The notes beneath the pieces were generated by a model. It was not told the origin of the DNA. It saw only the letters and a program-made list of their open reading frames with translations, and ran no database searches. This document shows positions 2,379 through 64,000 of a DNA stretch of 64,000 bases, in pieces. This stretch comes from an uncultured Anaerolinea sp. Its GTDB lineage: Bacteria; Chloroflexota; Anaerolineae; Anaerolineales; Anaerolineaceae. How positions within the stretch are numbered: position 1 is the stretch's first letter; each line of letters opens with the position of its first letter. The DNA is taken from assembly GCA_964453115.1 (NCBI GenBank), contig CAYVRT010000012.1, forward strand, positions 33,264-97,263, given 5' to 3'. The translations under genes were made by a program, and so were the position numbers.

Positions 2379-2394
2379 ACGAAGTAGGCGTTAA

Positions 2395-8854: not shown

Positions 8855-10335
8855 TGCAGTTCCTCCATGAGTTTGAAATAGATATCGGCATAGGCAATTG
8901 CCGATTGACTCCACGAAAAATCTTGTTCCATGCAGCGAATTTGCAGGGCATGCCAGGCCGGGCGGTTGGGGTAGAGGGCAAGGGCGCGCAACAGGGCGAC
9001 GCTGAAATTGGAGGGCTGCGGCTCTTTGAACAGGAAGCCTGTGTTTTCACCGGGTTGGCGCGTGTCTCGGATGGTGTCGTGCAGGCCGCCGGTGTCGCGG
9101 GCGACGGGGACACAGCCGTAGCGCATGGCGATCATTTGTGCCAGGCCGCAAGGCTCGTAGCGCGAGGGCATCAGCAGGATGTCACCGCTGGCATACATGC
9201 GGTGTGAGAGGTCGCGGTCAAAGCGGATGATGGCGCGCACCCGGTCAGGCCATTCGGCTTGCAGGCTGCGGCAGGCGCTTTCGAGCAGCAGGTCGCCAGT
9301 GCCAAGGAAGACCATTTGCCAGGGCTGGTCTGTGACCATTTGCAGTCCTTCGATGGCAATGTCCATTCCTTTTTGCTGATCCATGCGTCCGATGGCAATT
9401 AGCAAGGGAATTTCGGGATTGACTGGCAGGTCGAGGGCTGCTTGCAGGGCAAGTTTGTTCTGCTTGCGTTCCTGGAATGTGGCGAGCGAGAAATGATGCT
9501 CGAGAAGCGGGTCGCTAGCGGGGTCCCATACTTCCTGGTCCAGGCCATTCAGGATGCCGGAAATGGAAGTTGAACGGGTGCGCAGAAAGTCTTGCAGGCC
9601 GCAGCCAAAAGCGGGGGTGAGAATTTCGCGGGCATAGTTGGGTGAGACGGCAACGATGTGGTCGGCGACACTGAGGCCGAGCGGGAGGGGGAAGGAGCGC
9701 GCCCAATCGGGCAGGAGCGGGTCGTTGCTTGGTTCGAAGCCGAAAGCGGGCAGGGTCTTTTCGGCGCTGCCGCCCAGAAAAGGCAGGTTGTGGATGGCAA
9801 GCAGGCTGCGCGTGGCCGCAAAGAAGGGGTCTTGGGCGCGGGTGCGCGCCAATTGGTAAACGGTCATGGCGGTGTGCCAGTCGTTGGCGTGTAAAATGTG
9901 GGGCTGCCAATTGAGGGCGCGCATGGCTTCGAGGCAGGCGAGCGAGAAGAAGAGGTACTTTTCGGCGTCTTGCTGCAAGTTGGTTGTGTTATAGACCGGT
10001 GCCTCAGGTGGGATGGGCGCACCTTCGATTAAGTAAACGGGGATTGCACCGATGTGGGTCAGGTAGACCTGGCCGGGTAAATTGCCTGCCGGGGTAGGGA
10101 CAGAGAAGGAGGCAGCGGGCAGTGGGGAGGGTAATTTTTGACGAACAATGCCATGAAATGGGATGGCAAGACGTACATCCAGGTTGTAGCCGTGAATGGT
10201 TTGCGGCGGCAAGGAGCGCAGTGCCAGGGGCAGGGAACCGGCTACGTCGCCCAGCCCACCAACCTTGACCAGGGGGTCAGCCTCGGATGCAATCATCAGG
10301 ACGCGCAGGGTTTTGGTTTCGGGTTCTGTGGGCAT
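8851..10335 (-). CDS. glgA: glycogen synthase (ADP-glucose type)
   Basis: [30 protein letters not shown] motif. The ATG at 10335 is preceded by AGGAG. The tracked ORF begins 2 codons earlier at TTG. Confidence 0.9.
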
Positions 10336-10344
10336 GGACAACTC

Positions 10345-13487: not shown

Positions 13488-14003
13488 TCAGGCCTTCTCT
13501 TTGTTGCGACGGGTAAATTGTTGTGAGAGTAGGGCCTCGCGAATGCGCAAATCGGAATTGCGGATTTTTTGTGCCAGGTCGGCAGCCAGGTTGAAGAGGA
13601 CACGGTAGCCAAGCTGTGGGTTGGTCTCGCAGAGATCAAGCAGGCGCTGGCGGGCAATGCGTAACATACGCGTATTGCGCAGCGAGCAGCGCACGCTGGC
13701 TGAGCGAACGCCTTGATCAACGAGTGCGATTTCACCAAAAGATTGGCCGCGCCGCAGGATGGAGACGATGTGTGGCTCGGTTGTGGTTGTTTGACGGGTT
13801 TGCACTAGGCTGGGGTCAATCAGTACCTCGGCTTCGCCGCGTAGAATCAGGTATAGCTCATCTTCGCGCGAGCTTTCGGCAACAATTACAGTTCCTTTGT
13901 CGTAGTCCACAACTTCACAAATGGCTTCGACCTGTTCCAATTGTTCCTGTGTCAGGTTGTAGAACAGTTCAGTTTCCTTAAGAAAATTGATGTATTTGCC
14001 CAT
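13488..14003 (-). CDS. stand-alone cyclic-nucleotide-binding domain protein
   Basis: The internal ATG at 14003 gives 171 aa with ELYLILRGEAEV and FGEIALVDQGVRSASV cNMP-binding motifs. No HTH domain follows. Confidence 0.7.
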   Translation of the reverse strand: MGKYINFLKETELFYNLTQEQLEQVEAICEVVDYDKGTVIVAESSREDELYLILRGEAEVLIDPSLVQTRQTTTTEPHIVSILRRGQSFGEIALVDQGVRSASVRCSLRNTRMLRIARQRLLDLCETNPQLGYRVLFNLAADLAQKIRNSDLRIREALLSQQFTRRNKEKA

Positions 14004-14095
14004 ACTGCCTCCAGTACTGATAAGTTTAACATGAAACTGTAAAAAGCGGGGTGGGAAAATGGAGTTTTCTTTGTTGAACGGGTATAATTGCGGCG

Positions 14096-14455
14096 ATGAA
14101 ACGCTGGAATCAACGGATTGGTGCATGGGGCGAGACAGTTGCTGCGGCGCATTTGCAGGCGCAGGGGCTGGAGGTGTTGGCACACAATGTGCGCACGCCA
14201 TATGGTGAATTGGATTTGGTAGCCCGCGAAGGGCAGACACTGGTTTTTGTTGAGGTGAAGGCGCGCTCCAATGTGCGTTTGGGGTATCCAGAGGAGGGGG
14301 TTGGGGCAGCTAAGCAGCAGCATTTGCTTGCGGCCATTGAGGCCTATTTGCTTGACCAGCCTTGGGCTGGGGATTGGCGCGTGGATGTGGTGGCTGTGGT
14401 GGGGCGTCCGGGCGAAATTCCACAAGTGGAGTGGTTTCGGAATGCGTTTTCTTGA
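14096..14455 (+). CDS. yraN: YraN-family (UPF0102) endonuclease-like protein
   Basis: 119 aa with GETVAAAHLQAQGLEVLAHNVRTPYGELDLVAREGQTLVFVEVKAR, the family pattern. Confidence 0.8.
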   Translation: MKRWNQRIGAWGETVAAAHLQAQGLEVLAHNVRTPYGELDLVAREGQTLVFVEVKARSNVRLGYPEEGVGAAKQQHLLAAIEAYLLDQPWAGDWRVDVVAVVGRPGEIPQVEWFRNAFS

Positions 14456-15389
14456 TCATCCGCGCCGATTGCTGGTTCTGATTGGCCCAACAGCTGTGGG
14501 CAAGACAGAGGCCGCACTGCACCTGGCTGAGCAGTTGAACGGTGAGGTGGTTTCGGCTGATTCGCGATTGTTTTACCGTGGGATGGATATTGGCACGGCC
14601 AAGCCAACGGTAGAAGAACGGCGGCGGGTGGTGCATCATTTGATTGATGTGGCAGACCCTGGCGAGACATGGAGCTTAGCCGTCTTTCAGCAGGCGGCTG
14701 CGGCTGTCATTGCCGAAATTCAGCAGCGCGGACGGCTGCCGATGTTGGTGGGTGGGACAGGGCAGTATGTTCGGGCTGTGGTTGAGGCCTGGCAACCGCC
14801 GGCCATTTCGCCCAACCTGGCGCTGCGAGCAGCCTTGGAGGCCTGGGCGGCAGAAATTGGCGCACCGGCATTGCATGCCCGGCTGCAACGGCTGGATGCG
14901 GCAGCAGCGGAGCGGATTGAGCCAAATAACCTGCGCCGGACGGTGCGGGCGCTGGAGGTCATTTTTTGTACAGGTATTCGTTTTTCGGCCCAAAGACAGC
15001 GTAGCGTTTCGCCCTATGCCGGGTTGCAAATGGGGCTGTGCCGTCCGCGCTCTGAATTGTATGAGCGAGTGGATCGGCGGATTGATCAGATGCTGGCCGA
15101 TGGCCTGGTGGATGAGGTGCGTGGATTGCTCGCGGCGGGTTGTTCTGCCGATTGGCCGACCTTTTCGGCGATTGGGTATCGTGAGATGGCGGCTTTTTTG
15201 GCCGGACGGATGACACTGGAGCAGGCCGTGGTTGAGATGAGGCGCCTGACACGGCAGTTTGTGCGCCGACAGGCAAATTGGTTCAAGGCCGGTGACCCGG
15301 CGATTCGCTGGTTTGCTGCTGGGCCGCAGGTGGTGGAGGAGATGGTGCAATTTGTGATGCAGGCGGAGGTGGCGGATGACGGTGGTTGA
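14442..15389 (+). CDS. miaA: tRNA dimethylallyltransferase
   Basis: The ATG at 14442 gives LLVLIGPTAVGKTEAALHLAEQLNGEVVSADSRLFYRGMDIGTAKP (P-loop and MiaA motifs). The tracked ORF is extended 57 codons upstream through yraN. Confidence 0.9.
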   Translation: MRFLDHPRRLLVLIGPTAVGKTEAALHLAEQLNGEVVSADSRLFYRGMDIGTAKPTVEERRRVVHHLIDVADPGETWSLAVFQQAAAAVIAEIQQRGRLPMLVGGTGQYVRAVVEAWQPPAISPNLALRAALEAWAAEIGAPALHARLQRLDAAAAERIEPNNLRRTVRALEVIFCTGIRFSAQRQRSVSPYAGLQMGLCRPRSELYERVDRRIDQMLADGLVDEVRGLLAAGCSADWPTFSAIGYREMAAFLAGRMTLEQAVVEMRRLTRQFVRRQANWFKAGDPAIRWFAAGPQVVEEMVQFVMQAEVADDGG

Positions 15390-17034
15390 GCGACCCTGGT
15401 TGAAGATGTATGATGCGGCGGTGATGCGTCAGGACATGGATTACTACCCACAGCAGCCGTTGTTTCACTTTTTGCGTCAGGCCGCGGGGCGGTATCCGCA
15501 GCAGGTGGCGTTGCGGTTTGGTAAAGCAACACTGAGGTACGCAGTTTTGGAACAGCTGACACAGCGTTTGGCCGATGGCCTGGTGCAGGCTGGTGTGAGG
15601 CCGGGTGAACGGGTGGGGGTGATGATGCCGAACTTGCCGCAATTTGTGCTGTCCTATTATGCTGTGTTGAAAGCTGGTGGCGTGGTTGTGGCTTGCAATC
15701 CGGCTTATCGGCGGCGCGAATTGGCGCATCAATTGCGGGATGCTGGTGTGCAGCGGCTGATTGGGCTGCGCGAGGACGCTGCAATCATTGCTGAGGCTGG
15801 AGAAGAGGTCGGGCTGCAAGAGGTGATTTGGAGTGAGATGCAGGATGCCTTTGACCTGGAAGGCTGGTTAACCCTCTCTCCGCAGCTTTTGCCATCAGGC
15901 GAACGAACCTTGCGAGCGGTTTTGCAGGCTGGACGTTTGGAGGCCGAACTGCCAATGGTCACGGGGGAGGATGCAGCCGTGTTGCAATATACAGGAGGAA
16001 CGACCGGGCAGCCCAAGGGCGCAATTGGCCTGCACCGCAACCTGGTGGCGAATACATTGCAATTTCAACGCTGGCTGCATGGGATGCAGGAAGGTGCTGA
16101 GGTGGTGCTATGTGCCATTCCATTGTTTCATGTCTATGGGATGGTGATAGCAATGAATATGGGGGTGGCATTGGCGGCAACCCTGGTGCTGTTCCCGAAC
16201 CCGCGCGATGTGGTTGGGCTGCTGGAAGAAATTCAGCAGCACCGGGTCACTTTATTCCCTGGTGTGCCAACCTTGTATCAAATGATCAATAACTGCTCGC
16301 AGGTGGGCGCGTATGATTTGCGCTCGATTAAGGCCTGCATTTCTGGTTCGGCTCCACTCTCGCCTGAGACGAAGCGGGTTTTTGAGGCATTGACCGGTGG
16401 AAAGTTATTGGAAGGGTATGGCCTTTCGGAGGCGCCGACTGCGACGCATTGTAATCCGTATCAGGGCGAGAACCGCACCGGCTCCATTGGTCTACCGCTG
16501 CCGGGTGTGGATTGTCGGATTGTGGTTGGTGAGGATGAACAAGATGCCGCGATTGGCGAGGCGGGCGAGTTGTGGGTGCGCGGGCCGCAGGTGATGGCCG
16601 GGTATCAGGGGCAGGCTGAGGAGAGCGCAGCTGCGCTGCGCGATGGATGGCTGCATACGGGCGATGTGGCGTGTATGGATTCGCAGGGCTATTTTTATTT
16701 GGTGGGGCGCAAAAAGGAATTGATTAAGGTCAGCGGCTATCAGGTTTGGCCGAATGAGGTGGAAGAGGTGTTGCGACGGCATCCGGCGGTGCGCGATGTG
16801 GGGGTGGCTGGGGTGCCGGATGTGCAGCGCGGTGAGCGGGTGAAGGCCTGGGTGGTGCTGAAAGACGGGCAATTGGCTGGGGAAGAGGAATTGCTGGTCT
16901 GGTGTCGGGCTGAACTGGCGTATTATAAACTGCCGGTGGATTGGGCATTTGTTGAGGCCCTGCCGCGCAGTACGGTTGGAAAGCTGTTGCGCCGTGAACT
17001 GCTGCGTTGGCATTTGGAGGGGAATCGGGAATAA
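15376..17034 (+). CDS. AMP-dependent acyl-CoA synthetase/ligase (FadD-like)
   Basis: AMP-binding motifs LQYTGGTTGQPKGA, GYGLSEA, TGDV and a C-terminal GKLLRREL. Confidence 0.85.
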   Translation: MTVVERPWLKMYDAAVMRQDMDYYPQQPLFHFLRQAAGRYPQQVALRFGKATLRYAVLEQLTQRLADGLVQAGVRPGERVGVMMPNLPQFVLSYYAVLKAGGVVVACNPAYRRRELAHQLRDAGVQRLIGLREDAAIIAEAGEEVGLQEVIWSEMQDAFDLEGWLTLSPQLLPSGERTLRAVLQAGRLEAELPMVTGEDAAVLQYTGGTTGQPKGAIGLHRNLVANTLQFQRWLHGMQEGAEVVLCAIPLFHVYGMVIAMNMGVALAATLVLFPNPRDVVGLLEEIQQHRVTLFPGVPTLYQMINNCSQVGAYDLRSIKACISGSAPLSPETKRVFEALTGGKLLEGYGLSEAPTATHCNPYQGENRTGSIGLPLPGVDCRIVVGEDEQDAAIGEAGELWVRGPQVMAGYQGQAEESAAALRDGWLHTGDVACMDSQGYFYLVGRKKELIKVSGYQVWPNEVEEVLRRHPAVRDVGVAGVPDVQRGERVKAWVVLKDGQLAGEEELLVWCRAELAYYKLPVDWAFVEALPRSTVGKLLRRELLRWHLEGNRE

Positions 17035-53153: not shown

Positions 53154-53270
53154 GGGAGCAACGACCTTGCCCTTCAGTGGGACTGAAAATGTGAGACCAT
53201 CCAAGATTGAGTAACAAAAACCATCGCTTTGAACGATGGTTCTCGATACAGTCGGGGCGAGAGGATTTGA
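53154..53270. repeat. direct repeat copy 1 (117 bp, identical to 53286-53402)
   Basis: Base-by-base comparison shows 117/117 identity at an offset of 132 nt. It contains a copy of the last 19 nt of tRNA-Pro plus its terminator hairpin and 60 further nt. Confidence 0.95.
53213..53241 (-). terminator. duplicated copy of the tRNA-Pro terminator hairpin
   Basis: Same sequence as 53345-53373: AACCATCG-TTCAAAG-CGATGGTT followed by TTTGTT on the minus strand. Confidence 0.6.
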
Positions 53271-53285
53271 TAGCACCCCTCGATG

Positions 53286-53458
<173 letters not shown>

Positions 53459-53519: not shown

Positions 53520-54269
53520 TTAAGTTTCAGGAACATGCCCGAGCGCGTAAAACGTGGGAATATAGAGCAATCGTTCGCCGCGCGCTCGCGCCTCTTGTTC
53601 TGTTTGTTGTAAGGCGTCCAACTCTTGCGCTGAGCAAAGGGTTTGCAAATCTTCGCGCAGCACAAGCCATTCCAATTCATCGGTTGAGGGCATGGATTGG
53701 TGATCCCAAAAACCGCCCAGCACACCGCTTTGCACCTTTTGCAGCCCGGCCTGCTGAAACAGGCTGCCCAGACTGCGACCGATGCATGGCTGCGCACCTT
53801 GCTGCCGGAGTGCCTCGGTTTGTAACTGTCCCAGGCTTGAAAGGCTGGGTGGGTAATCAATCCGTCCACCATAGTCGGGTTCTGCCAGGGCAAGGATCAT
53901 TCCGCCTGGGACGGTGACGCGGCGCATTTCGCGCAGTGCGGCGAGCGGGTTTGGTAGCCAAAGGAGCAGAAAATGACAAAAGCTCAGGTTGAATGCGGCG
54001 CTGGCAAAAGGCAGGTTGCATGCATCGCCGGCGGTGAATGCAGCGCGGGGGATGACTTGCCGGGCAAAGTGCAGGGCCATCAGGTCATGATCCAGGCCAC
54101 AGGTCAGCGGATTGGTAGAGACTTCACCAAGCAGCGCACCGGTTCCGCAGCCAAGGTCGAGAACGCGGCGGGCAGTTTCAAGCTGTGCTTGCGCAAACAG
54201 GTGCTGGCGCAAGGTCTGTGTCCAGCGAGCTTGCTGCTGATAGCGAGCGTGCCAGTCTTTCAGGTTCAC
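53520..54269 (-). CDS. class I SAM-dependent methyltransferase (operon gene F)
   Basis: VLDLGCGTG motif I and a downstream acidic/aromatic motif pattern. The GTG start forms a GTGA overlap with the stop of gene E. Confidence 0.8.
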   Translation of the reverse strand: MNLKDWHARYQQQARWTQTLRQHLFAQAQLETARRVLDLGCGTGALLGEVSTNPLTCGLDHDLMALHFARQVIPRAAFTAGDACNLPFASAAFNLSFCHFLLLWLPNPLAALREMRRVTVPGGMILALAEPDYGGRIDYPPSLSSLGQLQTEALRQQGAQPCIGRSLGSLFQQAGLQKVQSGVLGGFWDHQSMPSTDELEWLVLREDLQTLCSAQELDALQQTEQEARARGERLLYIPTFYALGHVPET

Positions 54270-55435
54270 AGCCGGGTGCGGGCTTTTTCCCAGATTGTGT
54301 TCCAGTCGTCATTGAGCAGGTTGCCAAGGACGTGTTCGAAGCCTTGACCAGGCAGCACATCGCCATCTGGCTCGACATACAACCAGGCGCGTCCGGCACC
54401 TTCAATCGGCGTTTCACCCTCGGACAGCTCCAGGCTGAGTGGGTGGAAACTGGAATAGGGGACAGGTAAATCCCAGGTCAGTGAAAGGCCGAGCAGGAAA
54501 GCCAGATCCCGCAAGGTGTTAAGCGCCGGGCGCAGCTCAGCGCTGTTGGCACTGAGCGAGAGCGAATGGACGCCCATCTGATGCAGCTTGCGGATCAGAT
54601 CTTCGACGCTGCTCTGGTTATTTGGGGTGAGGGTGATGTGAACGGTGATGAAGAGATCCTGAGCCAGGACATCGCGCAGGGCCTCCCATGAGATTTCAGA
54701 AGCGGGGTCGAGGATCAGCATCAGGTGATCGAGGCCGCTTTGCAAGACTTGTTGCAAATAGTTTGGCTCGCAAAGCCGCTGTCCATCGCTGAGTAGGCCG
54801 GTTACCTGTCCGAGTTGTTCGGCGTGAGCAATCAGTTCGGGCAGGTCAGGGCGCAGGGTTGGCTCACCGCCAGTGAAGATGATATGCGGAATGCCGGCCT
54901 GCCAGGATTTGCTGAGGATGGTTCTCCATTCTTCAGTTAGCAGTTCTCGCGTAACCCGGGTGGTGGGTGCCAGGTCGGGGGCAAGGCCTTCGCTCAGGCG
55001 ATAGGTGAGGGCACAATCCAGGCGGTAGGGGGCGGTCAGGGCGCGGGCATAGGGATCAACACGTTCGAAGCCGAGGAAGGTTTCGGGGTCGAGGTCGGGG
55101 GTTTCTATCAGTGTGTGCAAACGTTCTTGAAAATCGTTGAAATCGTTGGCGGCCTGGGCGCGTGAGACGCGGTAGCGCTGTGAGACCAGGTGTGCGACCT
55201 TCTCGGCAGGGGTTTGCTGAATTAGATGATAGGCATATTCGGCGGCGGTTTCGTTCAGGTGTAGAACGGTGCTGGCGTTCAGAATCAGCAGGGCATCGCT
55301 GCTTGCATCCACGCGCAAGTGCAAACGGTAGGGCGGTTGTACCTCAGGGGGGGATTGATAGGTGTAGATGCCGGGGGCCAGACGGGTTGGATGGCCAAAG
55401 AGGCGATCGAGCAAGGTGCTGAAGGCGCGTTTCAT
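54266..55435 (-). CDS. PqqD-like domain + degenerate radical-SAM/SPASM paralogue lacking all Fe-S cysteines (operon gene E)
   Basis: 389 aa, collinear with gene C (LAPGIYTY, RLHLRVDASSDALLILNASTVLHLNETAAEY, GIPHIIFTGGEPTLRPDLPELIAHAEQLGQVTGL, YVEPDGDVLPGQG). The CxxxCxxC position reads YRLSEGLAPD (54974-54997) and no SPASM Cys remain. GGAGG RBS before the ATG at 55435. Confidence 0.8.
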   Translation of the reverse strand: MKRAFSTLLDRLFGHPTRLAPGIYTYQSPPEVQPPYRLHLRVDASSDALLILNASTVLHLNETAAEYAYHLIQQTPAEKVAHLVSQRYRVSRAQAANDFNDFQERLHTLIETPDLDPETFLGFERVDPYARALTAPYRLDCALTYRLSEGLAPDLAPTTRVTRELLTEEWRTILSKSWQAGIPHIIFTGGEPTLRPDLPELIAHAEQLGQVTGLLSDGQRLCEPNYLQQVLQSGLDHLMLILDPASEISWEALRDVLAQDLFITVHITLTPNNQSSVEDLIRKLHQMGVHSLSLSANSAELRPALNTLRDLAFLLGLSLTWDLPVPYSSFHPLSLELSEGETPIEGAGRAWLYVEPDGDVLPGQGFEHVLGNLLNDDWNTIWEKARTRL

Positions 55436-55445
55436 GGTAGACCTC

Positions 55446-56990
55446 CTAGGGAGTAGGAACAGTTGGGAAAAGGAATTGATTGAATAGAATGGCAAGCAAG
55501 CAGACGATGGAGAGGAGAATGACGCTGATGATGATGGCAACAGTTAGCCATTTTGAGGATGTGGAGGGTTTTTCGGGTTGGGCAGAAACCGTGAGGGCGT
55601 CGAATTCTTCTGGTTTTCCAATCAGTCGGTGGCGGCGGAAGAAAAGAATGAAGAGCAGGTAAGGCAGGCCAAAGAGAAAAACGCTCAGAGCAAAGAGCAG
55701 GTTGACAGCAGTTTGCAACTCGCGGTTGAGCAGGCCGGTGAGGGCATCGCGCTGATTGATGGAAATGAGGGTGACGCCAAGGACGGATAGCACGAGGCCA
55801 AAGCCGAGTAAAATGCGGCTGCTGCGCGGCGCCAGTTTGCCATCTTTTTCGGAAAGGCGCACGCCCAGGCTGAGGGTGCTATGGGCAATCAGTGCTGCAA
55901 AGACGAGCAGCGAAGGGCCAAGGCCGATTTGTTCGGTTGTAAACTCGAGCGGGTCGTAGATGTTGGTGCCGCCCAGGGCCAGCACCAGACCCAGTGTGAA
56001 GGCCGGTGAGGCAATGCTGACCGCCAGCCAGGTGGCAGCGTTGCGGGCATTCCAACGCCGGGCAATGAGCAGAATGGCAGCAACAATCAGCACCGGGAGC
56101 GAGAAGAAGAAGTCGAGCCCAACGGTCATGGTCAATGGGCCAGGTTCGGGCAATTCACCGCCACCCGCTTTGAGGATGTCGTTCATGGCGAGGATCAGGG
56201 CCAGGGTGGGGCGGGTGATGATCAGAAAGGCAGATAATGCCTTGAGAACATCATCGCCGAAGCGCTTGCGAACCAGGTTGATAAAACGTTTGCCAAGGTC
56301 TACGGCGGCATCTACAACGGCCAGGCCGGAAGCCAGCCAGAGTGGGATGAGCAGGAAGGAGATGAGGGCAAAGATGCCGCTCAGGTTGGAGGCGAGTTGG
56401 GACAGGCTGCCACTGCTGAGGGCATAGAGCAGGAAGAAAAGGCCGGTGATACCGAGCCAGATGAGGAATTCGCCAATTTGGAAGTTCTTCCAGAAAGGTT
56501 TTTTATAGGTGAAGAGGTGTGTGGTTGTGCTGCCAATCCATAGCAGCGGGGCGGTGCAACACCAGGCCAACATGGCTGCGTTTTGTTCAAGAGGCATAAC
56601 ACAGAGCAGTTGTGCGCCGAATAGTAGAACGATGGGAATGAACAGAACCGGGTGACCATCTGTGGCGCCGGTGAGCAGGAAGGCCCAACTGAGCGCCATT
56701 GCCAGCAAGCCGGCAATGAGTGCAAGGATGGGGATTTGTTGCAAGGTGGGCGAATCGCCGGGCGGGGTGAAGACAATTTGTGAGATGTTGTGCTGGAAAA
56801 TTTCGGTGATGAAGACCGAAGAGAGCAGGATGGCAACCGAGGTGTAGCCGATGATGCTGAGGATGCGAATCTGCCGCGGAAATTCTTTGAGGTTGTGAAA
56901 GGCTTCCTCAAATGGAATCAGGTAGAAGTAGTAGGCAAACCGCCAGATGAGGTTGCCAATGAAACGAAGGGAGGTGAAAAGACGGTTCAT
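55446..56990 (-). CDS. polytopic integral membrane protein of unknown function (operon gene D)
   Basis: 514 aa from the ATG at 56990 (ATGA overlap with the gene C stop). About 12 or more hydrophobic segments. No motif I recognise. Confidence 0.7.
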   Translation of the reverse strand: MNRLFTSLRFIGNLIWRFAYYFYLIPFEEAFHNLKEFPRQIRILSIIGYTSVAILLSSVFITEIFQHNISQIVFTPPGDSPTLQQIPILALIAGLLAMALSWAFLLTGATDGHPVLFIPIVLLFGAQLLCVMPLEQNAAMLAWCCTAPLLWIGSTTTHLFTYKKPFWKNFQIGEFLIWLGITGLFFLLYALSSGSLSQLASNLSGIFALISFLLIPLWLASGLAVVDAAVDLGKRFINLVRKRFGDDVLKALSAFLIITRPTLALILAMNDILKAGGGELPEPGPLTMTVGLDFFFSLPVLIVAAILLIARRWNARNAATWLAVSIASPAFTLGLVLALGGTNIYDPLEFTTEQIGLGPSLLVFAALIAHSTLSLGVRLSEKDGKLAPRSSRILLGFGLVLSVLGVTLISINQRDALTGLLNRELQTAVNLLFALSVFLFGLPYLLFILFFRRHRLIGKPEEFDALTVSAQPEKPSTSSKWLTVAIIISVILLSIVCLLAILFNQFLFPTVPTP

Positions 56991-58339
56991 GGGTGGGGTG
57001 GGAGATGATTTCGTTCGAGGGGGCAGCCGCCGCCGCATTCAGGCAGCAGGCCGCAGGTTTGACATTCGGCTGGCAGGTTGCGCCGTTCGCGCAGGCTCAA
57101 TGCCAACTCGTGATTCCAGATGGCTTCCCAGGGTGTTTCGAGAATGTTGCCCAGGCTGGTGTAATAGGACTGACAGGGCAAGACGCTGCCGTCGGATTCA
57201 ATGCACATATTGTAGAGCGCAGCAGTGCAGCCTTTGACGCCCAAATCCATCTGGACGGGGTCAAAGTGGCAGTATTGGGTTGGTGTGTACCAGATCAGTC
57301 GCTGCCCTTGCTGCTCGGTGAGGGTACGGGCCATTTCCAGCAGGGCGGGCAAATCGCCGGCAGGTAATCCGCTGCCAACGCGAGCGCCATGACCGGCGTA
57401 AATGAGCGCATTCAGACCAATGGTTGGCACGCCCAATTGACCGAGGAATTGCAGGGTTTGGAATAAGAAGCGGCTATTGCTTTGCAGCATGGTGGTGTTT
57501 GTCATAACGTATAGGCGGGAGGTGAGGGCGTTTCGGATGCCGGCAACGGTTTCTTGCCAGGCGCCGGGTGAGCGCACCATGCGATCATGAAGGATGGGGT
57601 CGTGCGATTCGAGTGTGATTTGCACGTGGTCCAGGCCGACATTGACCAGGCTTTGCAGGTAATTGGGGTCGCTCAGGCGACGGCCATTCGTGTTGAGGCC
57701 GGTGATTTGTCCGAGCTGTTCGGCGTAGGCGATCAACTCGGGCAGGTCGTCGCGCAGGGTGGGTTCGCCACCGGTGAAGACGATGTGCGGAATGCCAGTT
57801 TGCCAGAGCTTGTCGAGGATGCGTTTCCAGGTTTGGGTGGAGAGTTCGGGGTGGTTGCGCGGGCGATCATTGTAACAATGAGCGCAGGCATTATTGCAAC
57901 GATAGGTGATGGCCAGGTCCATGCGGTAGGGCGCGCTGGGGTGAGCAGAAAAAGGGGCGGTAGTTTCCAGATCCAGCTCGCAGACCGGGCAGGGGCCATC
58001 GGGGTCGAGCAGGGCTTCTAATTTGCTGCAAAAGTCTGCGTAATCCTGGCGGGCCTGGGTTGGTGTGACCTGATAATGGCGCACCAGGGCGTTTGTGGCT
58101 GTGCGTGGGGGAACTTGTTGTAGGATGAGGTGGGCCATGAAAGCTGCGCTGGGGTTGAGGTGCAGGAAACGGGCAGCATTGATGATCAGCAGGGCGCTGC
58201 CATCACTTTCCACGCGTAAATGCAGGCGGGCGCGTCCTTGCTGGCTGTGGCGCTCAAAAGAGTAGATCCCGGGTGCGAGGGCCTGCTGGGTGGGGCGGGG
58301 GCGCAAAGCACCCCGAAGCTGCTCAAGCCAAAATGGCAT
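56987..58339 (-). CDS. radical SAM / SPASM maturase with N-terminal PqqD-like (RRE) domain (operon gene C)
   Basis: 450 aa from the ATG at 58339. N-terminal LLIINAARFLHLNPSAAFMAHLILQQ...QVTPTQARQDYADFCSKLEALL resembles PqqD. CNNACAHC (57875-57898) is CxxxCxxC. GGEPTL SAM motif. C-terminal CIESDGSVLPC ... CQTCGLLPECGGGCP (57023-57229) fits the SPASM Cx2Cx5Cx3C pattern. Confidence 0.9.
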   Translation of the reverse strand: MPFWLEQLRGALRPRPTQQALAPGIYSFERHSQQGRARLHLRVESDGSALLIINAARFLHLNPSAAFMAHLILQQVPPRTATNALVRHYQVTPTQARQDYADFCSKLEALLDPDGPCPVCELDLETTAPFSAHPSAPYRMDLAITYRCNNACAHCYNDRPRNHPELSTQTWKRILDKLWQTGIPHIVFTGGEPTLRDDLPELIAYAEQLGQITGLNTNGRRLSDPNYLQSLVNVGLDHVQITLESHDPILHDRMVRSPGAWQETVAGIRNALTSRLYVMTNTTMLQSNSRFLFQTLQFLGQLGVPTIGLNALIYAGHGARVGSGLPAGDLPALLEMARTLTEQQGQRLIWYTPTQYCHFDPVQMDLGVKGCTAALYNMCIESDGSVLPCQSYYTSLGNILETPWEAIWNHELALSLRERRNLPAECQTCGLLPECGGGCPLERNHLPPHP

Positions 58340-58341
58340 GG

Positions 58342-60045
58342 TTACCTGCCACCGCCGGCACAGGCGCAGGCACAGCCGGCGCATGCACAGGCACAGGCGC
58401 AAGACCGTCCACTGCCGCCGCCGCCCCGTCCACGCGACGAGCCACTGCTGCTGCTGGTTGTTTGTGGAACGGGATTGGTGCGGTTGGTGATGCCGCTGGT
58501 GAAACTGGTCACATCGCCCACAATATCGGAGGAAAGGTTCTGAACGCTGTTAACGACGCGTGCGGCAAAATCGGAGCCGGGCAGGTGAGGCAGACTGGTG
58601 GGAGCGCTGGAAGCTGCTGCTCCGCCGCCCTGGAAGGCGGCTGGTGCTGCGCCGCTGATGGGGCGGGCAAAGGTTGGGTCGAGCCGTGACCACCAATTGG
58701 GAATGTAGACCGGGCTGCTGGTGAAGACTTCGCGGGTACGGCGGTCATAATCACGGTCGAGCATCGTCCAGCCAAGCAGTTCATCGTAACGCTGGCTCTT
58801 AACTTCGGGAGTGTTGGCTGCCTCGACCTGTTCCCATGCCTTTGCCATGATGCTTTTGTAATATTCGAGAGTTTCTTTGCGGCTGAAGCCTTTCATCTTT
58901 TCGCCCACGCTTTTGACCAGTGCGACGACCATGGATTGAAGGGCCTTTTGGCGTGCTGTGCCCTCTTTTTCTTTGAACGCATCCAAAAATTCGATTTCGT
59001 AGGGTTGGAGCGTTTCGGGCAGCGGGTCAGAGCGTTCCAGGGTTAGAGGTTTGGGACTGGTGATGGTTGCGGCACCTTTCTTCAGAATGCTGAAGAGTGT
59101 CATTGTCAGGACTTTGTCGAGTGGTTGCTCCATCAGGATGGCAGCCTCGATGGCGGTCAGGCCGCGCTTGATGCCGTGTCCTTCAACTGAGATGCGGGGG
59201 GGCATGTATTGCAGGCGGCGCTTTTTGGCTGCCTGAGCACTGGTGATGCTGATGAAGGCGATGAAGCCAGCAAATCCGGCACAACAGCCAACCGAAAGGG
59301 CTGTATCCGTGTCAATGCCCAGGCTATCCCACAGTGTTGGGCGTTTGAGAACGCCCTCTGGCAGGATGCGCGCCGGAAAGGAGGCACCAAAACGGTATTT
59401 GCTGATGGTGTTGGCCTCTGTGCTGCGCCAGCGATAAAAAACATTGCCTTGCTGGTCGTAGCCCGATTCGGGCTCGGCAGCCCCGGGCCAGCCAGAGGGG
59501 GTAAAGTAGCGTGGCTCTTCTGGTTCAATGCCGGGGGGGAGGTGCAGGGTGAGGGTGTAATCGGTATTTCCGGTAACCAGGCTGGAGTCAAAATAATTGG
59601 GCTGGAAGTTGAAACTGGCATAGTCTTGGTTGTTGACTGGTTTGGTGAAGAACAGCATACCTTGAATGTCCGTGATTCGGGCATGGAAGGTGCCTTTTTT
59701 GCCGGGGGGAATCGAGTTGGTGCCCAGGCCAAAGGCAATGCCGTTATCAATGTAGGTTGAGGTGCTGATATCGGTGATCTTTTTCCCGTTTACATCGGCG
59801 CTGGCATTGGATGTGCTGTATTGACGGGTGGGCATGCCAATATCCACATACTCGATTGCTGCGCCGCTGGGTTGGTTGGCGAAGACGTAGACGTAATCTA
59901 GCGTGGCGGTGCCATCGGCCTGGATGTACAGGTGAACATCGGCGCGTTCAACGGCAAAGTAATAGGATTGAGCAGAGGCGCGAACAAACGAACCGGCCAG
60001 AGCAAACAAAATTAAAAAGATAGATAACCAACGAATGAGGCGCAT
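58342..60045 (-). CDS. DUF2207-like single-pass membrane protein with C-terminal Gly/Ser-rich and (Cys-Ala)n tail (operon gene B)
   Basis: 567 aa from the ATG at 60045 (GGGAG 6 nt upstream). Signal peptide MRLIRWLSIFLILFALAGSFVRASA. Ectodomain start YYFAVERADVHLYIQADGTATLDYVYVF is DUF2207-like. TM ALSVGCCAGFAGFIAFISITSA. The RGLTAIEAAILMEQPLDKVLTMTLFSILKKGA and LQPYEIEFLDAF segments are also DUF2207-like. It ends ...SSSSGSSRGRGGGGSGRSCACACACAGCACACAGGGR. Confidence 0.75.
   Translation of the reverse strand: MRLIRWLSIFLILFALAGSFVRASAQSYYFAVERADVHLYIQADGTATLDYVYVFANQPSGAAIEYVDIGMPTRQYSTSNASADVNGKKITDISTSTYIDNGIAFGLGTNSIPPGKKGTFHARITDIQGMLFFTKPVNNQDYASFNFQPNYFDSSLVTGNTDYTLTLHLPPGIEPEEPRYFTPSGWPGAAEPESGYDQQGNVFYRWRSTEANTISKYRFGASFPARILPEGVLKRPTLWDSLGIDTDTALSVGCCAGFAGFIAFISITSAQAAKKRRLQYMPPRISVEGHGIKRGLTAIEAAILMEQPLDKVLTMTLFSILKKGAATITSPKPLTLERSDPLPETLQPYEIEFLDAFKEKEGTARQKALQSMVVALVKSVGEKMKGFSRKETLEYYKSIMAKAWEQVEAANTPEVKSQRYDELLGWTMLDRDYDRRTREVFTSSPVYIPNWWSRLDPTFARPISGAAPAAFQGGGAAASSAPTSLPHLPGSDFAARVVNSVQNLSSDIVGDVTSFTSGITNRTNPVPQTTSSSSGSSRGRGGGGSGRSCACACACAGCACACAGGGR
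58357..58401 (-). repeat. imperfect (TGY-GCN)n codon repeat encoding CACACACAGCACACA
   Basis: Codon-by-codon reading of 58345-58404 on the minus strand shows 7 Cys alternating with Ala/Gly. The same DNA produces AQAQAQ and LCLCM strings in other frames of the ORF track. Confidence 0.9.
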
Positions 60046-60068
60046 AGAGGGCTCCCTTCGGGCGAAAC

Positions 60069-60449
60069 TTACCACTTTGGTTCTTCACTAATTTGATAGG
60101 TCGTTTTGCAATAGGGGCAGCTGACCATCGCGGCACCGTTGACGACTTTGATGTCATCGCCGGAGAGAACGCCACCGCAAGACTGACATTTGATCGTTTC
60201 CATGGCAACTTTGCCGGGGAGGTCAATTTTCAGGGTCACCTGTTGGGCCGCGGCGGGCGCTGCCGGGGTGAGAAAACGCAAGGCAACAAAAATAAGGACG
60301 AAACTGATCCCAACCAAAATTAACCCGGTCAGGATGAGGCCGCCTGGCGTGCCTTGCGCTTCGGGGCTGAAGGCGGCGAGAATGAACAACACACCAAACA
60401 GCAGCAGAATGGCTGCAACAATCAGGGCGATGATTTTGAGAACTTTCAT
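60069..60449 (-). CDS. two-TM protein with C-terminal zinc ribbon (operon gene A)
   Basis: 126 aa. GGAGG 7 nt upstream of the ATG at 60449. TMs IIALIVAAILLLFGVLFILAAF and LILTGLILVGISFVLIFVALRF. C-terminal CQSCGG...CPYC. Confidence 0.7.
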   Translation of the reverse strand: MKVLKIIALIVAAILLLFGVLFILAAFSPEAQGTPGGLILTGLILVGISFVLIFVALRFLTPAAPAAAQQVTLKIDLPGKVAMETIKCQSCGGVLSGDDIKVVNGAAMVSCPYCKTTYQISEEPKW

Positions 60450-60573: not shown

Positions 60574-60615
60574 TTCTTCGTGTGGCAATCAGAAAAACAG
60601 AAAGAGCCCTGTTCT

Positions 60616-63600
60616 ATGAAAAATCTTGTCCCGCTTTTCATTCAACAACAATACCGGCGGCGTTGCTTTGCTGGGCAGATGCAAGCTGCCAGTATGTTTG
60701 TGGATATTTCTGGCTTTACGCGCATGACCGATGCGCTGATGCAGCATGGCAAAGAGGGTATTGAGACACTTTCTGATATTCTTGGTTATATTTTCGACCC
60801 AACCGTTCGCAGTATTTATGCTGCTGGTGGTTTCATTTCTACCTATGCTGGAGATGCATTCACGGCGCTTTTTCCAGCTTGTGCAGATTCCAACCAGGCG
60901 GCGCTGCGTGCCCTTTCCGCCGCACAGGAAGTTGCCCGTTTTTTTCAAACAGGCGGTGTATATGCTTCGGCACTGGGGCAGTTTTCCTTTTCGGCGAAAA
61001 TTGGGCTGGGTTTTGGGGAGGTAGAGTGGGAGATTTTGGGGGATGAGGGTTCTCGGTTGTTTTATTTTCGCGGCGATGCAATAGATGCTTGTGCGCAGGC
61101 TGAGCATTATGCCGAGTCGGGTGAACTTTGGGCCGAGCAAACCTTTTTGGCACAGGCGGCACTGAGCAGCCCTAGCCGGACGCAGGGCCGTTTTGCGCCG
61201 ATTGCAACCTTCCTGGAGCAGCAGAATGCGCATCTGGAGATGGAACCACTCCTCTTTTCTGAGCAGGAAATGCGCTTGTTTGGTGGCGAAGACGAGTTTC
61301 AGTTCCCGGAAGGTGAGTTTCGTGAGGTTGTTTCAGTCTTTATTGCCTGGGAACATTTGCCACATTTGGCTGATTTTGTCTATTCTGCATTGCAATTGCA
61401 GCAGCGTTATGGGGGCAGCCATTTGCAGTTGGATTTTGGCGACAAGGGCAGCAAGATGTGGCTGTTCTTTGGTGCCCCAGTGACGCATGAAAATAAGGAA
61501 GAACGAGCATTACAATTCATTACCGAACTCTGGCGGCAGATGCCGACTTCTGCGCGGGCAAGGGCTGGAATGACACGCGGGGTCGTATATGCTGGTTTTT
61601 ATGGCGCAGCTTTGCAGCAGGCTTTTTCTGGTCTGGGCAGTGCGGTTAATCAGGCGGCGCGCTTTATGGCGCGAGCGGAGTGGGGGCAGGTTTTGGGTGA
61701 TGCGAACCTGGCAAAAACGCCGGGTTATTCCTTTACCTTTTTGGGCGACTTTGCTTACAAGGGGCGTTCCCAGCTCATCTCAACCTATGCATTGCGCACC
61801 GATTCTGTATCAGTTGAGCCGCCGCCGCACCTGTTGCAATCTTTGCATTTGCTCATTGGCCGTCAGAGTGAATTGCAATTCTTGCACAATGCCTTGCAGC
61901 CGCTTCAAATGGGGCAATTTGGCGGTGTGCTATATGTGGATGGCGAAGCAGGGCTGGGTAAAAGCCATTTGCTTCAGGCTTTCAGGCAGCAAATCTCCCA
62001 ATTCCAATGGTTTGTTTTGCCCTGTGATGAGGTGCTGCGCAAAAGTCTCAATCCATTGGTGTATTTCTTGAAACAATATTTTGAGCAAAGAGAAGGCGAT
62101 TCTTTGGAGCAGAATCAGCAGCATTTTGAAGAGCATTTCAATCATCTCTTTCAGCAAGTGCGTGACCCTGATTTGAAACGGGACTTGAAACGAGGTCGCT
62201 CTTTTTTGGCGGCTTTGTTGCAACTTCCTGAGGAAGACAGCCTCCGACAATTGGACGCACAAGCCCGTTATGAAAGCACCCTCGATGCCTTGAAAGTGCT
62301 CATCAAGGCTGAAAGTGCCCGGAAGCCGGTTGTTCTTTTCCTGGAAGACGCTCATTGGGTAGATCCCGACTCGCTGGAGTTCTTTCGTTATCTGACCCGG
62401 AATGTGGAAGCAAGCCCCTTCTTGTTGCTGACAGCTTGTCGCTATCAGGATGATGGCGCACTTTTTCACCTTGCTTTGGATGCAGAGGTCCCGGTGCAGC
62501 GTTTGACATTGAGGCCGCTTGCGATGGCGGAAGCGGAAAAGCTGATTGCCTTTACGCTGAAGCAACCCAATTTGCCTGTGCCTTCAACAACGCTGGCCTT
62601 CATTCATCAGCGCAGCGCTGGCAACCCATTTTTTATTGAGCAAATCAGCCTGTATTTGAAAGAAAATCGGTTGTTGGATGATCAAAATAACCTGGATGAG
62701 CGTGTGATCAGCGGTCAGGCTGAATTGGAAATACCCAACACCATCAATGCCATTCTGGTGGCGCGCATAGATCGCCTGGCCGTTGAACTGAAGAAAATTG
62801 TCAAAACAGCTTCGGTGTTGGGGCAGGAATTCGCCGCAAGCATTCTTTCCACTATGTTGCAAAAGACAGGCGACTTGCCAGCAAAAACGCTGCAGCGCTA
62901 TTTGGTTGCTGGGGAAGAGCAGACCATCTGGCAGGCGCTTTCTGAATTGCGGTATATCTTCAAACATGCTTTGATCCGCGATGCGGTTTATGGCATGCAG
63001 CTGAAAAAACAACTGCGCGCTTTGCATCGGCTGGCTGGCGAAACGATCGAAGAACTTTTTCGTCAAGATTTGAAACCCTACTATGTGGATCTGGCTGAGC
63101 ATTATGAAAAGGCGGCCCTGCCTGAAAAAGCCATTCTCTATCTTACCCTGGCTGGACAGGATGCCCTCGAGTCCTACCGCAATCAGCAAGCGGTTGCACT
63201 CTACGAACGGTTGCTCAAGCATCCGCTTGAAGCTGAGGCGGAATTGCAAGCCTGGGAAGCCAAAGGACGGGCGCAACGTATGGCGGGGGATTGGGACGGG
63301 GCAAAACAAACCTGTGCGCGGATGCTAGAGCGTGCTGAAGCGCTTGCTGAACCGCATTGGCAGGCAAAAGCTGCCAATGCTCTGGCTTATTTCTTGCTTG
63401 CGCATGGGGAGATAGATCGGGCATTTGCGGTGGCAAAGCGCGCCCAAACACTGTCCATTCAAATCGGCGACCGCTTTGAGCAGGCGCAGGCACTGCGCAA
63501 CCTGGGGCTTGTTTGCATCAAGACCGGTGAATGGGAGCAGGCGCGGCAGATCCATACTGAACTGCTGGCATTGGCAAAGGAGATTGACGACCTGAACTCG

Positions 63601-64000
63601 ATTGTTTCGGCATTGTTTCAGTTGCGAGAACATTTGTTGGAAGAAGGCAATCTGGTTGCCGAATTTGAAACGTACCTGCGTCGTGCCGAAGAGAAAAAAG
63701 ATTTGCGTTTGATGAGTGTGATTTTGTTTTATATCGGGGATGTGTATCTGCTGCAGCGTAATTATGCCGCTGCCGAGCAGACCAATCGTCGGATGTATGA
63801 AATTGTTGATCAAATTGGGGATAAGCAGGGCATGTGCTATGCCATTGGTGACCGAGGCATTGTGCTTTCGGAGATCGGCCGGTTTGAAGAAGCGATTGAA
63901 TGCTACCGCGAAAAACTTGTTCTGGCGCGTGAAATTGGCGATGGCTATAATATTTGGGAGGGGCTTTTCAATTGGGCGTCAGCAGAAACGTTTCAAGCAC
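60616..64000 (+). CDS. multidomain regulator: tandem class III nucleotidyl cyclase domains + P-loop NTPase + TPR repeats (3' end beyond window)
   Basis: Not in the ORF track because no stop falls inside the window. I translated frame 60616+3n by eye to 64000 and saw no stop (1128 codons). Motifs: SMFVDISGFT and YAGDAFTALF (domain 1), GSAVNQAARF (domain 2), Walker A GEAGLGKS (61942-61965), LFLEDAHWVD (Walker B-like), then TPR-like repeats (ALRNLGLVCIKTGEWEQA, IGDRGIVLSEIGRFEEAIECY). Confidence 0.85.
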   Translation, partial: MKNLVPLFIQQQYRRRCFAGQMQAASMFVDISGFTRMTDALMQHGKEGIETLSDILGYIFDPTVRSIYAAGGFISTYAGDAFTALFPACADSNQAALRALSAAQEVARFFQTGGVYASALGQFSFSAKIGLGFGEVEWEILGDEGSRLFYFRGDAIDACAQAEHYAESGELWAEQTFLAQAALSSPSRTQGRFAPIATFLEQQNAHLEMEPLLFSEQEMRLFGGEDEFQFPEGEFREVVSVFIAWEHLPHLADFVYSALQLQQRYGGSHLQLDFGDKGSKMWLFFGAPVTHENKEERALQFITELWRQMPTSARARAGMTRGVVYAGFYGAALQQAFSGLGSAVNQAARFMARAEWGQVLGDANLAKTPGYSFTFLGDFAYKGRSQLISTYALRTDSVSVEPPPHLLQSLHLLIGRQSELQFLHNALQPLQMGQFGGVLYVDGEAGLGKSHLLQAFRQQISQFQWFVLPCDEVLRKSLNPLVYFLKQYFEQREGDSLEQNQQHFEEHFNHLFQQVRDPDLKRDLKRGRSFLAALLQLPEEDSLRQLDAQARYESTLDALKVLIKAESARKPVVLFLEDAHWVDPDSLEFFRYLTRNVEASPFLLLTACRYQDDGALFHLALDAEVPVQRLTLRPLAMAEAEKLIAFTLKQPNLPVPSTTLAFIHQRSAGNPFFIEQISLYLKENRLLDDQNNLDERVISGQAELEIPNTINAILVARIDRLAVELKKIVKTASVLGQEFAASILSTMLQKTGDLPAKTLQRYLVAGEEQTIWQALSELRYIFKHALIRDAVYGMQLKKQLRALHRLAGETIEELFRQDLKPYYVDLAEHYEKAALPEKAILYLTLAGQDALESYRNQQAVALYERLLKHPLEAEAELQAWEAKGRAQRMAGDWDGAKQTCARMLERAEALAEPHWQAKAANALAYFLLAHGEIDRAFAVAKRAQTLSIQIGDRFEQAQALRNLGLVCIKTGEWEQARQIHTELLALAKEIDDLNSIVSALFQLREHLLEEGNLVAEFETYLRRAEEKKDLRLMSVILFYIGDVYLLQRNYAAAEQTNRRMYEIVDQIGDKQGMCYAIGDRGIVLSEIGRFEEAIECYREKLVLAREIGDGYNIWEGLFNWASAETFQA

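Follow-up and report, generated by a model that had tools for sequence, protein, structure and literature searches.

An invariant Cys-Ala tail on membrane proteins of Anaerolineae, Clostridia and archaea as a candidate tethered substrate of a linked radical SAM-SPASM enzyme

The locus described here raises the question of why a membrane protein should end in strictly alternating cysteine and alanine two nucleotides before the gene of a radical S-adenosylmethionine (SAM) enzyme, and whether that enzyme acts on the end of the protein. It lies in a 64,000-nucleotide stretch of DNA (the window) from an uncultured Anaerolinea sp. (assembly GCA_964453115.1, contig CAYVRT010000012.1, positions 33,264 to 97,263), in which the membrane protein, here called protein B, is encoded on the minus strand at 58342..60045. 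The analysis points to an undescribed protein-modification system, with the tail of protein B as the tethered substrate of the enzyme, a reading to which we assign a probability of roughly 60%.

Protein B was taken as 567 residues from an ATG at 60045 (version P0001); the complete open reading frame (ORF; 58342..60075) gives 577 residues from a GTG. On the minus strand the end of this longer ORF is ...SSSSGSSRGRGGGGSGRSCACACACAGCACACAGGGR, read as ...SSSSGSSRGRGGGGSGRS-CACACACAGCACACA-GGGR. The C-terminal tail peptide is SCACACACAGCACACAGGGR, and the C-terminus proper, the tail core CACACACAGCACACAGGGR, comprises the last 19 residues (549-567; 58345..58401, minus strand). Its final codon is AGG for Arg (58347-58345), the stop codon is TAA (58344-58342), and the dinucleotide CC (58341-58340) separates the stop from the ATG of the enzyme (58339-58337). 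The seven Cys alternating with Ala, the single Gly break and the 2-nt gap given in a preliminary description of this DNA were all exact on reading of the minus strand. The DNA of the tail is an imperfect TGYGCN repeat. The back-translated pattern of CACACAGGG occurred once in the window, compared with 0.00 times in 100 dinucleotide-preserving shuffles of it. Upstream of the core lies a Ser/Gly/Arg-rich linker (58402..58464, minus strand; predicted local distance difference test score (pLDDT) <50), in which composition is kept and sequence and length are not. It is preceded, approximately 20 residues N-terminal of the core, by the conserved motif FTxxITN(K/R)TNPVP (residues 515-527; 58465..58503, minus strand), whose residues F515, T520, T523, N524, P525 and P527 were invariant in an alignment of 85 sequences.

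A search with protein B returned more than 3800 clusters at 90% identity, mostly from metagenome-assembled genomes (MAGs) of Anaerolineae and from Leptolinea sp. HRD-7. All but one of the best 120 homologues (119; 42-100% identity overall) terminated in (CA)4-5-G-(CA)3-GGGR, preceded by a freely varying Ser/Gly/Arg linker. Over these 120 homologues column identity in the 19-residue tail was 99.9%, making it the most conserved stretch of protein B, ahead of the juxtamembrane motif YLPPKIxVEGHGIKRGLTAVEAAIL. The first CA block had four units in 105 close relatives and five in 14, and the last block, (CA)3GGGR, was fixed. When the DNA of 15 loci was compared, all 19 tail codons differed at the third position with 0 amino-acid changes; 20 of 22 variable sites were third positions, and the remaining two reflected the choice between CGN and AGR for Arg and the stop codon. 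Because no amino acid changed despite this variation, the tail is not a DNA repeat kept or varied by slippage, and the comparison indicates that the peptide is under strong purifying selection at the protein level. Length variation by slippage, which had been thought conceivable from the repeat-like DNA, was thus not borne out: the codons varied synonymously only, and a difference in length among close relatives was confined to the four or five units of the first block.

More distant relatives were collected by a HMMER scan with protein B stripped of its tail, which gave 798 related clusters at 50% identity, and 149 further representatives were examined. The canonical tail was found in 64 and a variant tail in 40, and the 45 without a tail were mostly fragments or frameshifted reads. 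The variants comprised (CA)3G(CA)3, (CA)3G(CA)4, (CA)2G(CA)4, (CA)5 and (CA)3, as well as tails with DS, VS or S interruptions, and nearly all finished in CACACAGGGR. All full-length relatives among the 149 carried a (CA)n...CACACAGGG(R) tail; in the alignment of orthologues that had been proposed as a check, every full-length orthologue retained it. What stays invariant at a minimum is (CA)3-GGGR. At the start, Cys-Ala periodicity and adjacency to a maturase had been singled out as what was special about the tail, and its invariance across hundreds of divergent orthologues agrees with that judgement.

Tail loci were collected by two independent DNA pattern scans, one with (TGYGCN)x4 in species-representative genomes and one with CACACAGGGR in metagenomes. 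The genome scan was too loose, 98 of its 120 rows being CA/TG microsatellites, other frames or chance matches, and these were reused as a negative control; one metagenome match (L150), a chance match in high-GC DNA, was left out. Both scans together yielded 139 loci with in-frame (CA)3GGGR, which fell into two architectures. In type I proteins the stop codon directly follows GGGR. They were found in Anaerolineae, and also in a MAG of Thermoguttaceae (Planctomycetota), in a MAG labelled Acidobacteriota and in an archaeon of the Methanomassiliicoccaceae. The archaeal clade is genuine: its tail is (CA)5GGGR, its roughly 60 clusters take in proteins labelled by NCBI as Methanomassiliicoccales or Thermoplasmata archaeon, and an archaeal contig of 462 kb carries the same cassette. 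In type II proteins the tail reads ...CACACAGGGR-AGC(S/T)xK(D/N)(F/L)Y and is followed by 11-33 more residues. The hosts are Clostridia (Lachnospiraceae, Oscillospiraceae and Eubacteriales), human-gut assemblies included. A type II query matched at least 1760 clusters, none of them named or with a Pfam domain and some with more than 2000 member sequences, and the tail was identical in 106 of the best 120 matches.

The outside domains of the two types are homologous (hhalign 99.8%, E 6.6e-29, 160 columns). The large cytoplasmic domain of type I is missing from type II, so the Gly-rich linker and the tail are the sole cytoplasmic element that the types share. Hidden Markov models (HMMs) of type I and type II B proteins without their tails matched 123 of 127 testable tail-bearing ORFs, and the other four were truncated or frameshifted; the motif was therefore not found on any other protein family. 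Set against the refuting conditions of the preliminary description, this result and the retention of the tail in full-length orthologues both speak in its favour. Some cassettes hold two tandem tail-bearing paralogues (L229 at 6347-10356, L179, L131, L139 and L142; in type II, L122 and L185), and L229 and L179 also have a Ser/Thr-kinase-like ORF that separates the radical SAM gene from the tail genes.

Linkage between tail and enzyme was assessed by tblastn, using the radical SAM proteins of the window, of Clostridia and of archaea as queries against the tail loci. Of the 139 tail loci, 115 contained a homologue, compared with none of the 98 unrelated control loci taken from the loose (TGYGCN)x4 genome scan; in 20 of the 24 tail loci without a match the flanking DNA was too short to judge. 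At canonical type I loci the enzyme was found in 61 of 69 (61 of the 65 with at least 900 nt downstream), and in 56 it started no more than 300 nt downstream on the same strand. The other type I loci had it in every case (8/8), downstream and on the same strand, seven of them within 300 nt. Loci with the (CA)nG(CA)4 variant had it in 7 of 12, at 2-7 kb upstream, and their tail genes often come as a tandem pair; where the enzyme was missing, in five loci, the upstream DNA measured <0.9 kb. At type II loci it was present in 39 of 50, immediately upstream in 38 and downstream in one, and the 11 without it had <1.2 kb of upstream DNA. The gene order is tail to enzyme in Anaerolineae and archaea and enzyme to tail in Clostridia, and the linkage persists through this rearrangement. 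The adjacency noticed in the window therefore recurs in Chloroflexota, Clostridia and archaea despite differing gene order.

The proposed tail maturase (450 residues; 56987..58339, minus strand) had been described as a radical SAM protein with a RiPP recognition element (RRE; RiPP, ribosomally synthesized and post-translationally modified peptide) and a SPASM domain. All three parts were found: PqqD/RRE (PF05402; 26.5 bits against a gathering cutoff of 23.4; approximately residues 54-108, 58016-58180), Radical_SAM (PF04055; 88 bits) and SPASM (PF13186; 41.8 bits against 21.5). The CxxxCxxC motif is formed by C148, C152 and C155 (57875-57898) and is conserved in all nine catalytic homologues aligned. 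The set of SPASM Cys is complete in the window and type I enzymes and reduced in type II. Enzymes from tail loci were 31-69% identical to that of the window, much closer than to any characterised family. By sequence, the nearest solved relatives were SkfB (6efn), PqqE and CteB (5v1q), with SkfB as the top PDB match at 65 bits. Against NCBIfam the highest score was for NirJ2 (129 bits; cutoff 500), and the PqqE and SkfB models gave 112 bits (cutoff 381) and 71 bits (cutoff 300). For each of the named maturase families (SkfB, AlbA, StsB, PqqE, MftC, ScmE/F, HxsC and others) the enzyme fell far short of the curated cutoff, as did the Clostridial and archaeal enzymes for all NCBIfam maturase models. 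TIGR04082 (SbtM) was not among the 25 best of its 71 NCBIfam matches, all far under cutoff, and the ACGX radical SAM model matched one Clostridial enzyme weakly (49.7 bits; cutoff 400). At the level of whole families, no Pfam or NCBIfam model reached its cutoff with the tail proteins or the radical SAM enzymes.

The topology of protein B was predicted from sequence and compared with an AlphaFold2 model (mean pLDDT 84), and the two agreed. A signal/anchor helix (residues 3-21) is followed by an outside beta-sandwich (residues 30-224; 59374-59958, minus strand; high confidence in AlphaFold2). A transmembrane (TM) helix comes next (residues ~249-267 by sequence prediction, then AAKKRR; 246-279 in the model), and then a cytoplasmic winged-helix-like and helical domain (residues ~290-441), a helical hairpin (residues 490-523) and a tail region that is disordered in the model (residues 530-567). 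With a signal/anchor helix and a single TM helix the C-terminus is predicted to be cytoplasmic, as the preliminary description had supposed, and a tail that is predicted to be both cytoplasmic and disordered would be within reach of a cytoplasmic enzyme. All tail proteins were predicted to follow one plan, in which a K/R-rich N-terminus and signal/anchor helix lead to ~200 residues of outside domain, and a single TM helix leads from there to the cytoplasmic C-terminal part that contains Gly-rich stretches and the tail. The motif FTxxITN(K/R)TNPVP sits at the end of the helical hairpin and was found in the archaeal clade as well, and it is a candidate for a leader-like element recognised by the RRE.

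The best structural matches of the beta-sandwich were ribophorin I/OST1 of the eukaryotic oligosaccharyltransferase and the N-domain of M1 aminopeptidases. Protein B had no Pfam match at E<0.01. Its description as a DUF2207-type protein proved weak: the gathering score was not reached, and the N-domain of DUF2207 (PF09972 / DUF2207_C) gave sub-threshold matches (E about 0.003) in only 2 of 24 type II proteins. Against NCBIfam, TIGR04222 matched residues 305-394 of protein B at 15.8 bits (E 0.0085), short of its cutoff of 43 bits, and sub-threshold matches to the same family were seen in the juxtamembrane domain of 16 of 85 type I proteins (best E 3e-4); the scores suggest a remote similarity at most. 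When three tail peptides were scanned against NCBIfam with E up to 10, only noise and no curated tail family was returned, the tail's own match to TIGR04082 (E 8.9) being of this kind.

The tail is most likely a substrate of the radical SAM enzyme because an invariant peptide, predicted to be cytoplasmic and disordered, is paired with an RRE/SPASM enzyme, because the two remain linked through changes of gene order in two domains of life, and because nothing else on the cytoplasmic side than the tail is shared by types I and II. From the conservation, the predicted topology, the enzyme domains and the linkage we infer its role as substrate, and likewise the chemistry and physiological role set out in this text. 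The PqqD-like RRE would dock on a segment of protein B near the tail, FTxxITNKTNPVP in type I and the AGCSxKDFY follower in type II, and the flexible Gly-rich linker would feed the CA repeat into the active site, where 5'-deoxyadenosyl radicals would abstract hydrogen atoms from the repeat. The Cys-derived products may be thioethers to neighbouring residues, of the sacti/ranthipeptide type, or SbtM-type thiooxazoles, one per Ala-Cys unit. When RRE-SPASM enzymes act on Cys, they most commonly form thioether crosslinks. After modification the tail would remain part of the membrane protein at the cytoplasmic face, most plausibly as a metal- or redox-active module. In type I the enzyme may have the help of a methyltransferase and a zinc-ribbon membrane protein, and in some cassettes of a radical SAM paralogue that is catalytically dead.

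These helpers and the other genes of the window cassette lie on the minus strand on both sides of the central pair. Directly upstream of protein B, a gene at 60069..60449 encodes a small protein of 126 residues, in which two TM helices are followed by a zinc ribbon at the C-terminus. It was found in 43 of 47 type I loci with at least 2.3 kb of upstream DNA, in archaea too, and in no type II loci. In type II, a zinc ribbon lies inside some of the tail proteins themselves (PF13240, E 9e-6; L038 at 1797-3098 on the minus strand, L144 and L185), and its occurrence as a domain in some type II proteins and as a separate upstream protein in type I suggests that the functional partnership is conserved. 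The cassette closes with a gene (53520..54269) for a class I SAM-dependent methyltransferase. A methyltransferase gene was found at 29 type I loci but at none of the 50 type II loci; archaeal cassettes have it as well, and in (CA)nG(CA)4 variant cassettes it directly follows the tail gene. As the zinc-ribbon protein and the methyltransferase are lacking in type II, the universal pair is the tail protein and the radical SAM enzyme.

A pseudo-radical SAM paralogue (54266..55438; 39% identical to the enzyme) has kept the RRE and the barrel and lost CxxxCxxC and all SPASM Cys. A separate gene of this kind is conserved in several Anaerolineae cassettes, with copies in L011, L021, L027, L029, L001 and L003. 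It is conceptually similar to the 'pseudo-SAM/SPASM' family TIGR04347, far below whose cutoff it scores, and may be a non-catalytic, substrate-binding partner. Between the two radical SAM paralogues lies a polytopic membrane protein of 530 residues with ~12 hydrophobic segments (55446..57038). It had no Pfam or NCBIfam match and no tblastn match in any other tail locus; it was rejected as a core component, and its membership of the system is uncertain. Small gaps and overlaps between the genes suggest one operon, from 60449 to 53520. In the L003/L004 cassette (13764-16793), which has a protein B variant of 776 residues, four genes of phospholipid/phosphatidylinositol mannoside type are inserted between the radical SAM and pseudo-radical SAM genes, namely a CDP-alcohol phosphatidyltransferase, two lipid A-type acyltransferases and PAP2. 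In L018 and L198, the hydrogenase maturation genes hypE and hypD, as read from ORF translations, converge on the tail gene from downstream.

Beyond the cassette, a tRNA-Pro(GGG) gene was located at 53383-53458 (minus strand). A perfect direct repeat of 117 nt occurs at 53154-53270 and 53286-53402, with a spacing of 132 nt and with the second copy overlapping the 3' end of the tRNA; it could be an att-like duplication from an integrated element or an assembly artefact. On the other side, ~3.4 kb of the window (~60600-64000) is lower in GC content (0.48-0.55) than the adjoining DNA (0.56-0.60), and neither strand offers a credible ORF; Pfam matched none of the five longest ORFs, and neither a tandem repeat nor an Rfam family at gathering score was present.

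Several points weigh against modification of the tail by the enzyme. The case for it would come down to linkage and conservation, both read from sequence, and the linkage was sampled in one direction, from tail loci to radical SAM genes. Four type I loci with adequate flanks (L028, L213, L018 and L198) had no radical SAM gene nearby. The C-terminal SPASM Cys are fewer in type II, and the chemistry may therefore differ between the types. Classical RiPPs usually have a variable core and a conserved leader. The invariant core here fits a cofactor-like or structural module, and it also fits an unmodified metal site; C-x-C repeats, typical of metallothioneins, could bind metal as they stand.

The last point leads to the strongest alternative, in which the tail is an unmodified, metallothionein-like CxCxCxC site for metal or an Fe-S cluster and the enzyme acts on a cofactor, a lipid or the zinc-ribbon protein. 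Seven Cys with C-x-C spacing are present in the sequence, and invariance suits a precise metal site. The lineages that bear the tail (Anaerolineae, Clostridia and Methanomassiliicoccales) are anaerobes, in which free thiols are stable, and it was found only in such lineages. Some loci also have metal-related neighbours (MgtE and Nramp in L001; NifU, Rieske and a class V aminotransferase in L003; hypD and hypE in L018 and L198). These wider neighbours, however, are not conserved; the only universal partner is the radical SAM enzyme, with its peptide-binding RRE, and no other conserved candidate substrate lies beside the Clostridial enzyme. Thiolate clusters, moreover, need neither strict Ala between the Cys nor GGGR. 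We regard an unmodified metal site as a minority possibility, with odds of about one against four.

Linkage and cytoplasmic location would fit equally well if the tail served the enzyme, as a docking, regulatory or sulfur- or cluster-donating arm that recruits it to the membrane for modification of another target. The dead, RRE-bearing paralogue suggests that complex formation matters, and lipid-synthesis genes are inserted in the L003 and L004 cassettes. Against such an arm, no lipid or cofactor genes are conserved across cassettes, a docking peptide has no need of seven invariant Cys, and the SPASM- and RRE-containing relatives SkfB, PqqE and CteB modify the peptide that they bind; we consider it improbable. 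Still less probable is that the Cys are sites of lipidation (S-acylation type) or membrane association and that the neighbouring enzyme is incidental. A Cys-rich tail close to the membrane would suit that role, yet no acyltransferase is conserved in the cassettes, and an enzyme found in 115 of 139 tail loci and 0 of 98 controls is not there incidentally. That the tail is a functionless appendage of low complexity or a hexanucleotide repeat prone to slippage, for which the TGYGCN-like DNA and the four or five units of the first CA block might be cited, was rejected as scarcely credible, since the peptide is invariant with its synonymous sites saturated and, as the most conserved part of protein B, is retained by full-length relatives in bacteria and archaea alike.

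If the enzyme modifies the tail, the loci would represent a large unannotated system of post-translational modification, with more than 3800 type I clusters at 90% identity and more than 1700 Clostridial clusters, some of the Clostridial ones holding thousands of gut-metagenome sequences. Its substrate would be a full-size membrane protein instead of a secreted peptide, and the logic of radical SAM 'RiPPs' would extend to tethered protein cofactors. Invariance of the motif across the divide between bacteria and archaea implies that it serves something basic to the cell, which may be the handling of metals, redox chemistry or signalling at membranes. A radical SAM-SPASM maturase with a Cys-rich substrate is already known as a kind of system. 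A membrane protein as the substrate, a core in which Cys and Ala alternate strictly up to a final GGGR, the conservation between bacteria and archaea and the abundance in gut Clostridia appear undescribed, and there is a real chance of new chemistry or of a new type of protein-derived cofactor. In the searchable literature no paper was found with CACACACAGCACACA or CACACAGGGR, and none joining DUF2207 to radical SAM or CACACA to radical SAM and SPASM; a search for Haft's pairing of ACGX repeats with a radical SAM enzyme returned unrelated papers only.

Among known systems, those of SCIFF/ranthipeptides and sactipeptides (CteB, Tte1186, SkfB and AlbA) likewise place an RRE, radical SAM and SPASM enzyme beside a Cys-rich substrate. 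SCIFF occurs widely in anaerobes and keeps its pattern of Cys nearly invariant, and the tail system resembles it in both distribution and pattern. The differences are that the substrate here is the C-terminus of a bitopic membrane protein of 340-780 residues and not a free peptide of ~45 residues, and that its Cys alternate strictly with Ala. The Cys-rich segment is the end of a 567-residue membrane protein and not a short stand-alone precursor for processing, and no protease or exporter is conserved in the cassettes. The motif of anaerobic sulfatase maturation, (C/S)-x-(P/A)-x-R, is not present either: no Cys stands four residues before the Arg, and position +2 in the repeat is Cys.

PqqE/PqqD/PqqA and MftC/MftB/MftA share with the tail system an RRE-dependent radical SAM-SPASM enzyme and a substrate whose C-terminus bears, or lies close to, an invariant motif. 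PqqE was among the best NCBIfam and PDB matches, and an invariant core is more like a cofactor precursor than an antibiotic. In the pathways of pyrroloquinoline quinone and mycofactocin, free peptides undergo C-C crosslinking or decarboxylation at Glu/Tyr or Val-Tyr and the cofactors are released. The tail, by contrast, is Cys-rich and tethered, and the enzyme scores 112 bits against a cutoff of 381 and 81 bits against a cutoff of 265 with the respective models. Metallothioneins have repeated C-x-C with small residues between the Cys, as the tail does, but are free and soluble, have variable spacers and no dedicated radical SAM enzyme. A modified subunit that is retained, and is not a secreted product, is known from the maturation of quinohaemoprotein amine dehydrogenase (QhpD/QhpC), compared here by description only. 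QhpD, a radical SAM-SPASM enzyme, installs several Cys thioethers that are kept permanently in the protein subunit QhpC, which differs from protein B in being small, soluble and periplasmic and in its Cys-to-Asp/Glu links.

A chemical precedent for oxidation of Cys beside a small residue by a radical SAM/SPASM enzyme is SbtM, which forms thio(seleno)oxazoles from Gly-Cys via hydrogen abstraction at the Cys beta-carbon (PMC9204691); the corresponding units here are Ala-Cys. Its substrate SbtA is a short selenocysteine/Cys peptide limited to Geobacter and Desulfobacteria (PMC9204691), and the window enzyme does not belong to TIGR04082. A precedent for membrane proteins as substrates also exists: those of TIGR04222, with Cys interspersed in Ser/Gly-rich tails, have been proposed as substrates of MNIO (DUF692) enzymes, and thiooxazoles are metal-binding groups that MNIO enzymes make in bufferins (PMC12452194). 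The tail system resembles these in that a membrane protein with an unstructured, Gly/Ser-rich and Cys-bearing C-terminal tail is linked to a Cys-modifying maturase. It differs in four respects: the maturase is an O2-independent radical SAM enzyme and not the O2-dependent, non-haem iron MNIO; the tail is predicted to be cytoplasmic and not periplasmic (PMC12452194); the motif is invariant, compared with a diffuse composition; and the hosts are Anaerolineae, Clostridia and Thermoplasmata, compared with mostly Actinomycetota. No MNIO (DUF692) was found by Pfam or NCBIfam among the six cassette proteins. The recurrent sub-threshold TIGR04222 matches of protein B and the anaerobic hosts nevertheless suggest an attractive reading, in which the pair would be an anaerobic, radical SAM analogue of these systems whose product stays on the membrane. 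A bolder proposal, which we hold only tentatively and think unlikely in its full form, is that the pair is the anaerobic, radical SAM counterpart of the MNIO/bufferin-TIGR04222 systems, in which the Ala-Cys units would become thiooxazoles or a dense ladder of thioethers and the tail a membrane-tethered, cytoplasm-facing prosthetic module for metal or redox chemistry, an ancient protein-derived cofactor of Anaerolineae, gut Clostridia and Thermoplasmata. If the enzyme does modify the tail, the two maturation systems would stand as aerobic and anaerobic parallels.

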